From assembly GCA_963781585.1 (NCBI GenBank), contig CAWAGQ010000011.1, forward strand, positions 160,001 through 224,000: a DNA stretch of 64,000 bases, written 5' to 3'. The notes under the pieces were generated by a model, which was not told the DNA's origin, searched no databases, and saw nothing but the letters and a program-made list of their open reading frames with translations. The position numbers and the translations under genes were made by a program. Position 1 is the first letter of the stretch. Every line of letters begins with the position of its first letter. Below are positions 10,727 to 16,070 of the stretch, piece after piece. This DNA is from an uncultured Gemmatimonadaceae bacterium. Its GTDB lineage: Bacteria > Gemmatimonadota > Gemmatimonadetes > Gemmatimonadales > Gemmatimonadaceae.

Positions 10727-12343
10727 GTGCAGCCGATCGCGATGACGGTGGCACGCCGCGCGCGAATCTCATTCGTCGCATTGCTGGCGTGGGTCGTGCC
10801 CGCGCTGGCGGGCGCGCAGAACGTGGTGGGCGACACTGCAACGCATCGCGCTCCGGTCATTCGCGCCGTCGAGATCGCGCGACAGACTGTGTTCGACTCA
10901 CTCGAAGCCGAGTTCTGGCTCTATCATCTCGTCAACTCGCTTCACGTTCGTACCCGCCCCTATGTGATCCAGCGCGAGTTGCTCTTCGTCCCGGGTGAAC
11001 CCTACGATTCGGCGCGCGTCAACGAGTCCGAGCGCAACCTGCGCGCCCTCGGCATCTTCCAGGATGTGTCGATCGACACCGCGATGACCGATTCCGGCGT
11101 CGTGGTACGCGTTCGAACCATCGACGCCTGGACGACCACCGCCGGACTGGGACTGAGCACATCGGGGTCGCAGTACATTCTCGATCTGTCGCTCCAGGAG
11201 CTCAATTTCCTGGGCACGCATACCATTGCCGCGATCGGGTATGTGAACGATCCGGATCGCAGCAGCATCTCCGTCGGCGTCAGCACACCCCGCGTCATCA
11301 ACAACCGGATCGGCGTTGGCGCGTCGTACCTCGACCGGTCCGACGGGCATGCCGGGGCGCTGTCGCTCACCTATCCATTCGTGAGCCTCTCGTCACGCCA
11401 CGGCGGCTCGCTTCGTACGACATTCGTCAACGGCCGGGTGCTGCGGTTCTTTCGGGGCAATCCGGTTCCTTCTCAGGAGCTGCGTCGGCTGTATTCCATG
11501 GTTCGGGGTGACGCGGCCGTGGCGCTGATGGGCAGCCCGCGCGGCTACGTCCGGCTGGGTCTTGCCGCCCAGGTGCGACGCGAGGACTTCGGACCGGACG
11601 ACGGCTCGATCGCGATTCCACGGACCATCACCGCGGCCGCGGGGCCCACGCTCGGCGTCAGGCGGCCGCACTATATCCGGATGCACAACTACCAGACCAT
11701 GGGCCGCGTTGAGGACGTCGATCTCGGCGCCTGGATGCAGAGCGAGATTCTGGCTGCGCCCCGCGCCTGGGGCTATGACCGGGATGGCGTCGGCGCCGCG
11801 GTCACGGCCGGGATCGGGCATCGCATTCCTTCGGGATTCGTCCAGATCGTCGGAGGCGCCAACGCGCTCGTCACCAGCCAGGGAACGGACTCGGCGTCGG
11901 CCGGCGCGTCGGCCGTACTCGTTATGCAGGCCGGTCCGCGGCACCTGCTGGTGGCGCATGCCGGCGCGGGACTCCTCAGGAACCAGTTCCCGGGCGGCGA
12001 GTTCGACTACGGGCTGGGCAACGCCCTGCGCGCGTTTCCCGCGCACGCCTTCACCGGCAACCGTGAATACCAGCTCCACGCCGAGTATCGATTGATCATC
12101 TGGCCGCGCATCCTCGGCCTGGTGGGGGTCGGGGTCGCCGCGTTTGTCGATCACGCCGGTGCCTGGTACGACGGCCAGCCCTCGCGGACGGGGACGGATC
12201 TGGGCGTGGGGCTGCGGCTGGCCTCGCTGCGCGAGCCGGGGAGCGCTTGGCGCTTCGATCTGTCGCGCCGCCCGACAACCGACGTGCTGAGAGCGGCGTG
12301 GGTGATCTCGGTGGGGCGCGGGTTCGTCTTCCCGACGTTCTGA
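10727..12343 (+). CDS. Omp85/BamA-TamA-like outer-membrane protein (POTRA + barrel)
   Basis: Signal peptide; POTRA motif RTRPYVIQRELLF...ESERNLRALGIF; LRAFP, AEYR, FVDHAGAW, DLGVGLR; C-terminal F. Confidence 0.8.
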   Translation: MQPIAMTVARRARISFVALLAWVVPALAGAQNVVGDTATHRAPVIRAVEIARQTVFDSLEAEFWLYHLVNSLHVRTRPYVIQRELLFVPGEPYDSARVNESERNLRALGIFQDVSIDTAMTDSGVVVRVRTIDAWTTTAGLGLSTSGSQYILDLSLQELNFLGTHTIAAIGYVNDPDRSSISVGVSTPRVINNRIGVGASYLDRSDGHAGALSLTYPFVSLSSRHGGSLRTTFVNGRVLRFFRGNPVPSQELRRLYSMVRGDAAVALMGSPRGYVRLGLAAQVRREDFGPDDGSIAIPRTITAAAGPTLGVRRPHYIRMHNYQTMGRVEDVDLGAWMQSEILAAPRAWGYDRDGVGAAVTAGIGHRIPSGFVQIVGGANALVTSQGTDSASAGASAVLVMQAGPRHLLVAHAGAGLLRNQFPGGEFDYGLGNALRAFPAHAFTGNREYQLHAEYRLIIWPRILGLVGVGVAAFVDHAGAWYDGQPSRTGTDLGVGLRLASLREPGSAWRFDLSRRPTTDVLRAAWVISVGRGFVFPTF

Positions 12344-12408
12344 GTCACGAGTGCTTGGGTCCGGCGGCGAGGTAATGTCTGCGAGTTGTATCAGCCGTCG
12401 CGGCACTC

Positions 12409-12437
12409 TTGACGCCTCGCGACCGGCATCCTATCAT
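12409..12437 (+). promoter_or_regulatory. Sigma-70 promoter TTGACG-17-TATCAT
   Basis: Near-consensus boxes with a 17-nt spacer, ~20 nt upstream of the riboswitch. Confidence 0.7.
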
Positions 12438-12454
12438 CACCGCACAATCGAACG

Positions 12455-12510
12455 TCCGTGGTGATTTGCCGCCTATTGCCGCCACGTAAAACAATGAGCT
12501 AAAAAGCGAC
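12455..12510 (+). ncRNA. SAM-II (SAM_alpha-like) riboswitch aptamer
   Basis: CGTGGTGATTTG...TTGC.GCCACG.AAAACAA...GCTAAAAAGCG resembles the SAM-II pseudoknot consensus; P1 CGTGGT/GCCACG; upstream of sulfur-related genes. Confidence 0.78.
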
Positions 12511-12548
12511 GCGCCCGGCGGCAGTGTCAGCCCGGGCGTTTTCGTTTT
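12510..12548 (+). terminator. Intrinsic terminator, probable riboswitch expression platform
   Basis: GCGCCCGG...CCGGGCGT hairpin followed by TTTCGTTTT. Confidence 0.7.
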
Positions 12549-12570
12549 GGTGCCTTTCACCGGCCAGTCC

Positions 12571-12681
12571 ATGATCGCGTATCGCGCGCAGTCATCGCAG
12601 GTCTGCATGTGTACACCCTGGCGGCCTCCCTCGGGAGAGCGGTCCGGGGTTGCCGTGCATGGCGCACGCGACCCGAGCTAG
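12571..12681 (+). CDS. Putative 36-aa leader peptide with a Cys-Met-Cys motif
   Basis: MIAYRAQSSQVCMCTPWRPPSGERSGVAVHGARDPS*; followed by hairpins and a terminator; no clear SD sequence. Confidence 0.45.
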   Translation: MIAYRAQSSQVCMCTPWRPPSGERSGVAVHGARDPS

Positions 12682-12704
12682 AGCGAGAAGTCGCTCCAGC
12701 GCCC

Positions 12705-12739
12705 GGCCCGGCCCTCCTCGAGGGCCGGGCCTCTTTTTT
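12705..12739 (+). terminator. Intrinsic terminator/attenuator directly upstream of the ATP-grasp gene
   Basis: GGCCCGGCCCTC-CTC-GAGGGCCGGGCC (12-bp perfect stem) followed by TCTTTTTT. Confidence 0.85.
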
Positions 12740-12760
12740 CTTGCACGCAGGAGAAATGAT

Positions 12761-13803
12761 ATGACTGCCATTCAGACCTGGAGCCGGCCGCTCGCTGTGC
12801 TCCACGAACATCCCGACTGGTTCCGCCCGCTGTTCGCCGAGCTCGATCACCGGGGCCACGAGTATCGCCGGCTCGACGCGGCCTCGCACACCTACGATCC
12901 CGGTGAACGCGACGTGCCGTATTCGATCGTCTTCAATCGCGCCAGTCCGTCGGCGTATCTGCGCGGCCACGGCGCCTCCACCTTCTTCACGCTCCACTGG
13001 CTGCGTCACCTGGAGCGCCACGGCGTTCCGGTGGTCAACGGCAGCGCCGTCTATGCGCTGGAGCTCTCCAAGGCGTCGCAGCTCGATCTCCTCGATCAGC
13101 TCGGGTTGCCGTATCCGCGCGCGGTGATCATCAACGATCCCGCGCACGCCCTCGCGGCCGCCCGCCTGCTGCGCTACCCGATCCTGGTCAAGGCGAATAT
13201 CGGCGGCAGCGGCGCCGGCATCGTGCGCTACGACTCGCCGGCCGCCCTCGCCGACGCGGTGGCGGCGGGGGCGGTGGCCCTGAGCGTGGACGGCACGGCG
13301 CTGGTGCAGGAATGCGCGCCGCTGCGCGGGGGGCACATCACCCGCGTCGAAACGTTAGGCGGCCGCTATCTGTACGCGATCGATGTCTTTCCCGCGGCCG
13401 GCTCGTTCGACCTCTGCCCGGCCGATGCCTGCCAGACCACCAGCGGGGTGGAACTGGTGCGCGGCGCCTGCGCGGCCGACGCGCCCCGCGGCGGCCTCCG
13501 CGTCGAGGCCGCCCACCCGCCGGCCGCCGTCATCGCGCAGGTCGAGCGAATCGCCCGCGCCACGCAGCTCGATGTCGGCGGCATCGAGTATCTGATCGAT
13601 GATCGCGACGGCCAGGTCCGCTTCTATGATATCAACGCCCTCTCCAATTTCGTCGCCGATGCGCCGAACGTGATCGGCTTCGACCCGTTCGTGAACCTCG
13701 TCGACTACCTGGAATGGCGGGCACTCGGCGACCAATGCGACGCGTCATCCGCGGCGTTCGCGCCTCCCCGCCTCTCGCTCTCCACCGCTCACCACGTCAC
13801 GCC

Positions 13804-13807
<4 letters not shown>
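12761..13807 (+). CDS. ATP-grasp ligase (RimK/glutathione synthetase-like)
   Basis: AGGAG RBS; VVNG..ELSKA, YPILVKANIGGSGAGI, LVQE, DVGGIEY, YDINALSNF. Confidence 0.85.

Positions 13808-16070
<2,263 letters not shown>

Follow-up and report, generated by a model that had tools for sequence, protein, structure and literature searches.

Leaders in which a ligand-sensing RNA is combined with a translated upstream open reading frame (uORF) include that of mgtA, where a Mg2+ riboswitch is accompanied by the Pro-codon uORF mgtL. A related interplay between a B12 riboswitch and a uORF has been described for the metE leader of Mycobacterium tuberculosis (PMC11260477). Among the riboswitches for S-adenosylmethionine (SAM), those of the SAM-II class are OFF switches, many representatives of which have a promoter a few nucleotides (nt) before helix P1 and a terminator after P2 (PMC1273637). 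[quoted passage not shown] Leader peptides with Cys codons form a further group: uORFC-8-2, located upstream of cysS in Rhodobacterales, has a terminator at its end and Cys codons that fall within the first stem (PMC8632094), the Cys leader peptides of actinobacterial cys operons are without terminators (PMC1262725), and the polycysteine short open reading frames (ORFs) of mycobacteria are leaderless and act by sequestration of the ribosome-binding site (10.1101/834739). Here, we describe a leader from an uncultured soil Gemmatimonadaceae bacterium in which a SAM-II riboswitch is followed by a uORF with clustered Cys and Met codons, each with a terminator of its own, upstream of an operon of sulfur-scavenging type. 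The leader lies in a 64,000-nt stretch of DNA (GCA_963781585.1, contig CAWAGQ010000011.1, positions 160,001 to 224,000), which was analysed as a whole and is called the window below; coordinates are those of the window unless a relative is named. To our knowledge, riboregulation in Gemmatimonadota has hardly been studied.

Our reading, to which we assign a rough probability of 0.6, is that this operon is controlled by a pair of independent switches that follow one another on a single transcript, both acting through premature termination. The sequence elements, the family membership of the aptamer as judged by covariance-model score, and the conservation of the modules and of their tandem arrangement in relatives are observed. 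The leader begins at a sigma-70-type promoter, TTGACG-17-TATCAT (12409-12437, plus strand), which agrees with the consensus at 10 of 12 positions and is the single promoter-like site within 11800-13300, where shuffled sequences give a mean of 0.2. No second promoter was detected by consensus scan in this interval, nor in the leader of L001, a related locus that serves as the main point of comparison below. The probable transcription start is an ACAA at about 12444, nearly invariant across 40 aligned leaders. The region from there to 12765 is predicted to fold more stably than its shuffles (z=-4.38; 0 of 100 as good), as is the segment holding the second module (z=-4.16). The two terminators, T1 and T2, are 155 nt apart, and the interval contains a 36-codon uORF and neither a structural-gene ORF nor a promoter; since only one promoter was detected, both terminators belong to one 5' leader. 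A repeat or mobile-element origin of the T1-T2 spacer was checked, and no other copy of it was found in the 64-kb window. An earlier note on this DNA had claimed the serial layout of this promoter, a SAM-II-like aptamer, a first terminator, a 36-codon ORF with TGC-ATG-TGT, a GAGCGA/TCGCTC hairpin and a second terminator at 12705-39 just before the ribosome-binding site; all of these elements were recovered on the plus strand, with small corrections to the coordinates.

The first module is a SAM-II aptamer. At 12448-12524 (plus strand), the Rfam SAM_alpha model (RF00521), against which the earlier note had wanted its aptamer checked, scores 40.1 bits compared to a gathering score of 36 (E=1.4e-05), with model positions 1-79 covered in full length, and no other Rfam family attains its gathering score anywhere in the window. 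Helix P1 is formed by five pairs, 12457-12461 with 12482-12486 (plus strand), which are paired in 99.5% of the cells of the 40-leader alignment, two of them with one compensatory change each. The UUUGC and GCUAAA stretches of pseudoknot P2 are present and nearly invariant in this alignment, for which reason no covariation could be counted for P2; the folding tools were moreover used without pseudoknots. Relatives were taken as the best 80 of 579 ATP-grasp loci in genome contigs, from Gemmatimonadaceae. BLASTN located a plus-strand homologue of the aptamer with T1 ahead of the operon at 40 of the 80 loci, 39 of which were also found by motif search, and the aptamer is almost invariant in the resulting 40-sequence alignment. 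When 18 leaders positive by the motif (regex) search were scored with SAM_alpha, nine reached the gathering score at the expected place, and the other nine scored 27.1-34.6 bits at the same place; in many of the lower-scoring leaders, C replaces G in the GUGAUUUG stretch, giving a GUGGUC(A/U)UUUG variant. The L001 aptamer scores 38.1 bits, and no SAM_alpha match was obtained in L003, L005, L007, L045, L050, L055 and L064. One relative, L059, carries a stronger second match of 59.4 bits on the minus strand (2585-2660), approximately 650 nt upstream of the operon's own copy, which presumably serves a divergent gene. Downstream of the SAM-II element described here lie two genes that look to be of sulfur-scavenging type, the first for an ATP-grasp ligase and the second for an LLM monooxygenase resembling SfnG/SsuD.

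The aptamer runs directly into terminator T1 (plus strand; hairpin 12507-12544, core stem 12512-12538, region to 12549), with a predicted stability of -18.5 kcal/mol and the U-tract TTTTCGTTTT. It is the putative expression platform of the riboswitch. T1 was missed by the consensus terminator scan because its loop exceeds 8 nt, while a G+C-rich hairpin followed by a T-rich tail stands behind the aptamer in 40 of 40 aligned SAM-II leaders. In the unconstrained minimum free energy (MFE) fold of 12438-12560, the loop and 3' arm of T1 are paired with sequence further upstream, namely the 5' flank, the 5' strand of P1 and the first GCCGCC. This alternative fold reaches -43.0 kcal/mol compared to -29.0 kcal/mol for P1 together with T1 (pseudoknot region open), and is thus better by 14 kcal/mol in a model that leaves the ligand out. 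Its core helix, GCCGCC:GGCGGC, is pairable in 87.7% of the alignment cells. It is plausible, judging from these models, that pairing of the aptamer 5' half with T1 constitutes the antiterminator of the SAM-free state. The pairing between AAAAGCGA and TCGTTTT that the earlier note had put forward can be drawn, but it amounts to a minor extension of T1; a much larger alternative is predicted, and covariation supports neither of the two.

The second module begins 21 nt after the T1 U-tract, where the AUG of the 36-codon uORF is located (12571-12681, plus strand; ATG 12571, TAG 12679-12681; leader peptide MIAYRAQSSQVCMC...), about 127 nt 3' of the inferred transcription start. Its regulatory codons, TGC-ATG-TGT for Cys-Met-Cys, lie at 12604-12612 (plus strand) in the 5' arm of a long hairpin spanning 12604-12659, such that the Cys-Met-Cys arm, segment 1, is paired with segment 2 in the MFE structure. 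L001 has exactly the same CAGGTCTGCATGTGT block as the window. Directly 3' of the stop codon, the small GAGCGA/TCGCTC hairpin (12681-12696, plus strand) appears in the MFE folds, and an equivalent is found in L001 and in 12 leaders of a closely related group, here termed type A; it may serve for pausing or as a spacer. T2 follows on the plus strand, its stem at 12705-12731 and its tail, TCTTTTTTCT, extending to 12741. With 12 pairs, of which 11 are G-C, and a 3-nt loop, it has a predicted stability of -28.1 kcal/mol. The number of terminator-like sites in the region is in itself not unusual (1 compared to 0.7 expected in shuffles), and it is the strength of T2 and the position it keeps in relatives that carry the argument for it. 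The candidate antiterminator strand is segment 2, AGAGCGGUCCGGGG... (12636-12655, plus strand), which is complementary to the T2 5' arm; the MFE folds contain the 1:2 and 3:4 pairings, with T2 formed. To see how specific this arrangement is, six reading frames were scanned for short ORFs with clustered Cys/Met codons that end at most 70 nt before a strong terminator. Applied to both strands of the whole window, this rule returned exactly one combination of ORF and terminator, namely this uORF, and across 547 kb of loci it returned 21 pairs in operon leaders and 5 elsewhere. Two of these five are the L001 leader itself, which was recovered only by this broader scan.

The earlier note had also proposed that conservation of the Cys/Met codons in orthologous leaders be checked, and this comparison came out in favour of the module: a short ORF with a Cys/Met cluster followed by a terminator occurs upstream of the operon in 30 of the 80 loci. 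Clusters such as M-C-T-M-C-M-C, M-M-M-C-C-C-C-M-C and C-C-C-C-M-C-M-C-P-M-C are found; at four or five of the uORF loci the Cys codons number no more than one or two, while others have up to 10. Twenty-five uORF leaders were defined algorithmically, comprising 24 loci and the window. Their 751 residues contain 10.9% Cys and 10.1% internal Met, compared to 0.95% and 0.1% in 122 proteins that are mostly ATP-grasp homologues, the last Cys codon precedes the stop codon by a median of 45 nt and the stop codon precedes the terminator stem by a median of 27 nt, with a terminator present in all 25. For 12 closely related type-A leaders, the RNAalifold consensus consists of two hairpins, the first of them covering the Cys/Met codons, together with the post-stop hairpin and the terminator. 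In each of these 12, the codons at the end of the uORF could pair along the full length of the terminator's 5' arm (-12.5 to -22.1 kcal/mol), which is, as modelled, a classical segment 2:3 antiterminator. For the leaders related to the window, RNAalifold chose as consensus a helix of GG.CCGGG and CCGGCCC, the latter being invariant in the 5' arm of T2. The L001 counterpart of segment 2 can pair along the whole of this arm at -22.9 kcal/mol, a value matched by 4 of 500 shuffles. Many of the relatives' uORFs begin with M-T. Three loci with a uORF only were scanned for promoters; in two of them a consensus match stops 7-8 nt short of the uORF start codon (L053 3229-3265 and L077 3258-3293; none reached the threshold in L034), and the uORFs of such leaders are therefore probably leaderless. 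No convincing Cys/Met uORF was found within 1.5 kb upstream of 12 loci that have neither module. Three loci counted as SAM-II only (L019, L021 and L024) have a spacer of approximately 200 nt between SAM-II/T1 and the ATP-grasp start, in L019 and L024 with a second terminator-like hairpin. A short ORF in this spacer starts with M-C-G-x-C in L019 and L021 and with V-S-G-N-C in L024, and it may represent a different or degenerate second module.

Both modules occur in series in L001, L014 and L043 as well as in the window. Counting the window, the leader types are distributed as SAM-II only at 37 loci, uORF only at 27 and both at 4. The L001 leader shares with the window identical promoter hexamers, the SAM-II aptamer, T1, a 36-codon uORF in the same frame, the post-stop hairpin and T2, and identity between the two leaders is 83%, the uORFs aligning free of indels. 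Codon by codon, these uORFs have 18 of 36 positions in common, with 3 synonymous and 15 non-synonymous differences. The shared codons cluster in two blocks, QVCMC.PWR in segment 1 and GERSG in segment 2, with matching codon runs CAG-GTC-TGC-ATG-TGT...TGG-CGG and GGA-GAG-CGG-TC. This concentration on the Cys/Met segment and the candidate antiterminator strand is what would be expected if the RNA and the regulatory codons, rather than the peptide, are constrained. The uORF leader of the window also aligns with that of L043 over approximately 150 nt (z=7.9, a score reached by 0 of 200 shuffles) and, more weakly, with those of L008 (z=5.5) and L014 (z=2.5; 5 of 200 shuffles as good). On a quick tree of the ATP-grasp proteins, with branch support from the SH-like approximate likelihood ratio test (SH-aLRT) only, leader types are clustered, with 18 changes compared to 36.4 in shuffles. 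Its well-supported branches nonetheless require at least 3-4 leader-type switches, and the tandem loci stand among SAM-II-only and uORF-only neighbours. Since the tandem recurs in relatives, it is taken to be inherited, with each module independently conserved. For the combined picture, in which modules are exchanged across the lineage and a SAM-II riboswitch and a Cys-Met leader-peptide attenuator act in series as a two-input gate, we see roughly even odds. The distribution suggests that RNA-based and ribosome-based sulfur amino-acid sensors are interchangeable and stackable parts.

From the sequence we infer SAM binding, translation of the uORF, both antiterminators and the behaviour of the gate, which would operate as follows. 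With SAM bound, P1 and the pseudoknot would hold the aptamer together, allowing T1 to form and switching expression off, while in the absence of SAM the aptamer 5' half and its GCCGCC loop would pair with the loop and 3' arm of T1, so that polymerase reads on. At the second switch, poor charging of Cys-tRNA or Met-tRNA would stall the ribosome at Cys-Met-Cys, where it masks segment 1 (12604-12621); the freed segment 2 (approximately 12636-12655) could then pair with the T2 5' arm and block T2. If charged tRNA is ample, the ribosome would reach the TAG, the 1:2 hairpin would re-form behind it and T2 would terminate transcription. Full-length mRNA would thus require both low SAM and poor Cys/Met-tRNA charging, which in terms of abundance signals corresponds to a NOR gate.

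A number of observations weigh against this interpretation. The SAM_alpha score lies just 4 bits over the gathering score, and half of the tested relatives fall below it. No covariation was detected in the 40 leaders for P2, T1 or the T1 antiterminator, no measure exceeding that of shuffles, which for the T1 structures can be ascribed to leader sequences that are too conserved. The tandem itself was found in only 3 of the 80 related loci. The uORF of the window has neither a Shine-Dalgarno sequence nor a promoter of its own by consensus scan, its AUG is predicted to be paired inside a hairpin, and it contains two Cys codons and one Met codon only. The Cys and Met percentages given above for the uORFs are descriptive and carry no test, since these ORFs were partly chosen by their Cys/Met content. 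Furthermore, the 2:3 pairing of the window (-16.8 kcal/mol) is matched by 108 of 200 and 282 of 500 shuffles, and T2 is kept in the MFE structure under every ribosome mask modelled by thermodynamic folding; since T2 always wins thermodynamically, any antitermination must be kinetic. Across loci, uORFs pair no better overall with their own terminator arm than with those of other loci (2366 of 5000 permutations as low, the arms being grouped crudely by string similarity). A possible explanation for several of these points is that the riboswitch alone regulates the operon, and that the uORF and T2 are a decayed relic of the leaderless Cys/Met attenuator of the relatives, with T2 constitutively leaky or otherwise controlled. 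The missing Shine-Dalgarno sequence and promoter would fit this explanation, as would the single Cys-Met-Cys triplet where relatives have up to 10 Cys codons, the shuffle-level antiterminator and the persistence of T2 in the MFE. We nevertheless regard it as unlikely: the length, frame, start, stop and QVCMC block of the uORF are kept in L001 even though 18 of the 36 codons differ, the same design is kept in L043 and L014, and a terminator of -28 kcal/mol placed 29 nt 5' of the start codon would silence the operon unless relieved. At the level of sequence and comparative genomics, the AND-type gate proposed in the earlier note is supported by the pair of modules with their own terminators behind a single promoter and by the recurrence of the tandem in L001, L014 and L043, and neither the covariance-model score nor the comparison of uORFs, both named there as possible refutations, speaks against it; the proposal is qualified by an antiterminator in the window that does not exceed shuffles and a uORF without a Shine-Dalgarno sequence.

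The short ORF could also encode a functional Cys/Met/His-rich peptide, either metal-binding or a substrate or precursor of the ATP-grasp enzyme, in which case T2 would set the ratio of peptide to enzyme. ATP-grasp ligases modify ribosomal peptides in some systems, and this precedent, together with a weak TIGR04187 match of the ligase (2.7e-4) and the C-terminal motif LMW(H/Q)QP.G.G.AH common to the type-A peptides, speaks for such a role. The changes between the window and L001 are, however, mostly non-synonymous (15 compared to 3 synonymous codons), alignment with L043 requires frame-breaking indels in the 3' half, and the number and order of Cys and Met vary freely among loci. The conserved C-terminal codons moreover coincide with the terminator-complementary strand, and 37 loci carry this operon behind SAM-II without any uORF, which together make a peptide function very improbable. 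Nor does it seem at all probable that the leader is split into two transcription units, SAM-II with T1 forming a stand-alone small RNA and the uORF leader starting from an unrecognised internal promoter, so that no gate in series exists. Small RNAs terminated by SAM-II have been described in Sinorhizobium (PMC9373788), and the promoter of uORF-only relatives ends 7-8 nt before the uORF start; yet the consensus scans of 11800-13300 and of the L001 leader showed no second promoter, and the 21 nt from the T1 U-tract to the AUG leave little room for one. The least probable of the readings considered is that the second module works as an RNA switch for some ligand or protein, its reading frame being incidental. 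It would agree with the strong structure of this segment (z=-4.16), whereas no second known RNA family was found in 12340-12800 at permissive Rfam thresholds (the best, sX13, reached 22.6 bits compared to a gathering score of 50), and even very divergent leaders have retained an ORF that combines a start and a suitably placed stop with a Cys/Met cluster. Control by the two serial switches accordingly remains our preferred reading.

The operon itself consists of a gene for a RimK/LysX-like ATP-grasp ligase (12761-13807, plus strand; ATG 12761), preceded by a GGAG ribosome-binding site at 12750-12753, and, as the next gene, one for an SfnG/SsuD-like LLM flavin-dependent monooxygenase (13804-14850, plus strand). 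The ATGA overlap of stop and start at 13804-13807 suggests, from the gene arrangement, translational coupling of the two. A two-codon mini-ORF, ATG ATA TGA (12756-12764), overlaps the ATP-grasp start and is probably incidental. The ligase matches its profile weakly (TIGR00768, 6e-15, below cutoff), and its relatives of solved structure are remote (cyanophycin synthetase and RimK, E ~1e-4). Homologues are plentiful at 70-82% identity and come from Gemmatimonadaceae wherever the source is named, and C219, C224 and C237 are invariant in a 20-sequence alignment. The protein of the window has no internal Met, and 122 comparison proteins, mostly ATP-grasp homologues, contain 0.1% internal Met and 0.95% Cys, which may reflect economy of Met in a protein that is synthesised when Met and Cys are scarce. 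The monooxygenase matches TIGR04021 at 1.9e-73 (247.9 bits, below the cutoff of 383) and TIGR03565 at 4.6e-55, also below cutoff; by sequence, its nearest families are SfnG and SsuD. The possibility that leader type is linked to a different downstream gene was rejected, since the LLM gene comes directly after that of the ATP-grasp ligase at 77 of 81 loci (window counted), whatever the leader type. In L001, a gene for an MsuE/SsuE-like flavin mononucleotide (FMN) reductase (L001 2866-3465; TIGR03566, 1.2e-38, below cutoff) sits in the same operon between the tandem leader and the ATP-grasp gene; the window is without it. Ssu, Msu and Sfn are two-component monooxygenase systems for sulfur scavenging that use reduced FMN (FMNH2). 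By analogy, the operon looks like a two-component FMNH2 monooxygenase pathway for sulfur scavenging.

On its 5' side, the leader is preceded by a gene for a POTRA-domain, BamA-like outer-membrane protein (10727-12343, plus strand), which ends 66 nt 5' of the leader promoter; a consensus scan detected no terminator between the two. On the 3' side lies an IS110-family transposase gene (15141-16070, plus strand; NF033542, 213 bits). Several SAM-II-type relatives have an amidase gene further 3' of the LLM gene, and since the transposase gene follows the LLM gene in the window, the end of the operon may be interrupted there. At L003, L005 and L007, too, a gene lies immediately upstream of that for the ATP-grasp ligase; these loci yielded neither of the two leader modules.

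Compared to described systems, the first module keeps the layout of promoter before P1 and terminator after P2 of the metA element (RF00521). Known SAM-II riboswitches belong to Proteobacteria or Bacteroidetes and precede genes of Met/SAM biosynthesis, whereas this one is found in Gemmatimonadaceae in front of genes for an ATP-grasp ligase and an SfnG-like monooxygenase. The Cys-codon leader peptides resemble the second module in having clustered Cys codons before genes related to sulfur or Cys; here, Met is mixed with Cys (CMC, MCMC, MMMCCCCMC), and the phylum and operon are different. The uORF-only leaders of Gemmatimonadaceae are apparently leaderless like the mycobacterial short ORFs, but use terminators, while the uORF of the window departs from the mycobacterial type altogether, being not leaderless and preceding a terminator. 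None of these Cys-codon leader peptides is known to be preceded by a riboswitch, whereas the uORF of the window is preceded by SAM-II. The mgtA/mgtL and metE leaders share with the window a ligand-sensing RNA and a translated uORF in one leader; in those systems the uORF is embedded in the riboswitch or interacts with it and its single expression platform, whereas here two complete terminator modules follow one another.

The closest parallels are tandems of SAM-I/T-box(Met) and the bi-mechanism tandems of SAM-II/SAM-V, which like the window place two sensors with separate platforms in one 5' untranslated region (PMC9481103). The logic of SAM-I/T-box(Met) pairs is that proposed here, with the difference that their tRNA sensor is a T-box and the one here would be a translated leader peptide, and the tandem of the window further differs in that its riboswitch is SAM-II and that Cys as well as Met codons would be read. 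The terms uORF, leader peptide and ribosome-mediated are absent from the main text of the tandem review (PMC9481103). In the open-access literature, no description was found of a SAM-II/leader-peptide tandem, of a mixed Cys and Met leader peptide, of Met-codon attenuators or of riboswitches in Gemmatimonadetes. The earlier note, which knew of no description of the tandem, thus appears to hold for this particular combination, but not for the logic, which is already known from SAM-I/T-box(Met) (PMC9481103); the finding does not form a new category. New are the leader peptide as a putative sensor of tRNA charging behind a riboswitch, the mixture of Cys and Met codons in that peptide, and the occurrence of a riboswitch, a uORF or both at one orthologous operon across a little-studied phylum. 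These findings document riboregulation in Gemmatimonadota, and the orthologous loci amount to a natural experiment, one operon being equipped with sensor A, sensor B or both, in which the contribution of each can be compared. If our reading is true, the conserved, Met-free ATP-grasp ligase and its SfnG-like partner would form an uncharacterised pathway induced by sulfur amino-acid starvation, the known leader peptides would be joined by one that senses Met besides Cys, and tandem RNA logic gates would extend from riboswitch/riboswitch and riboswitch/T-box pairs to pairs of riboswitch and leader peptide.

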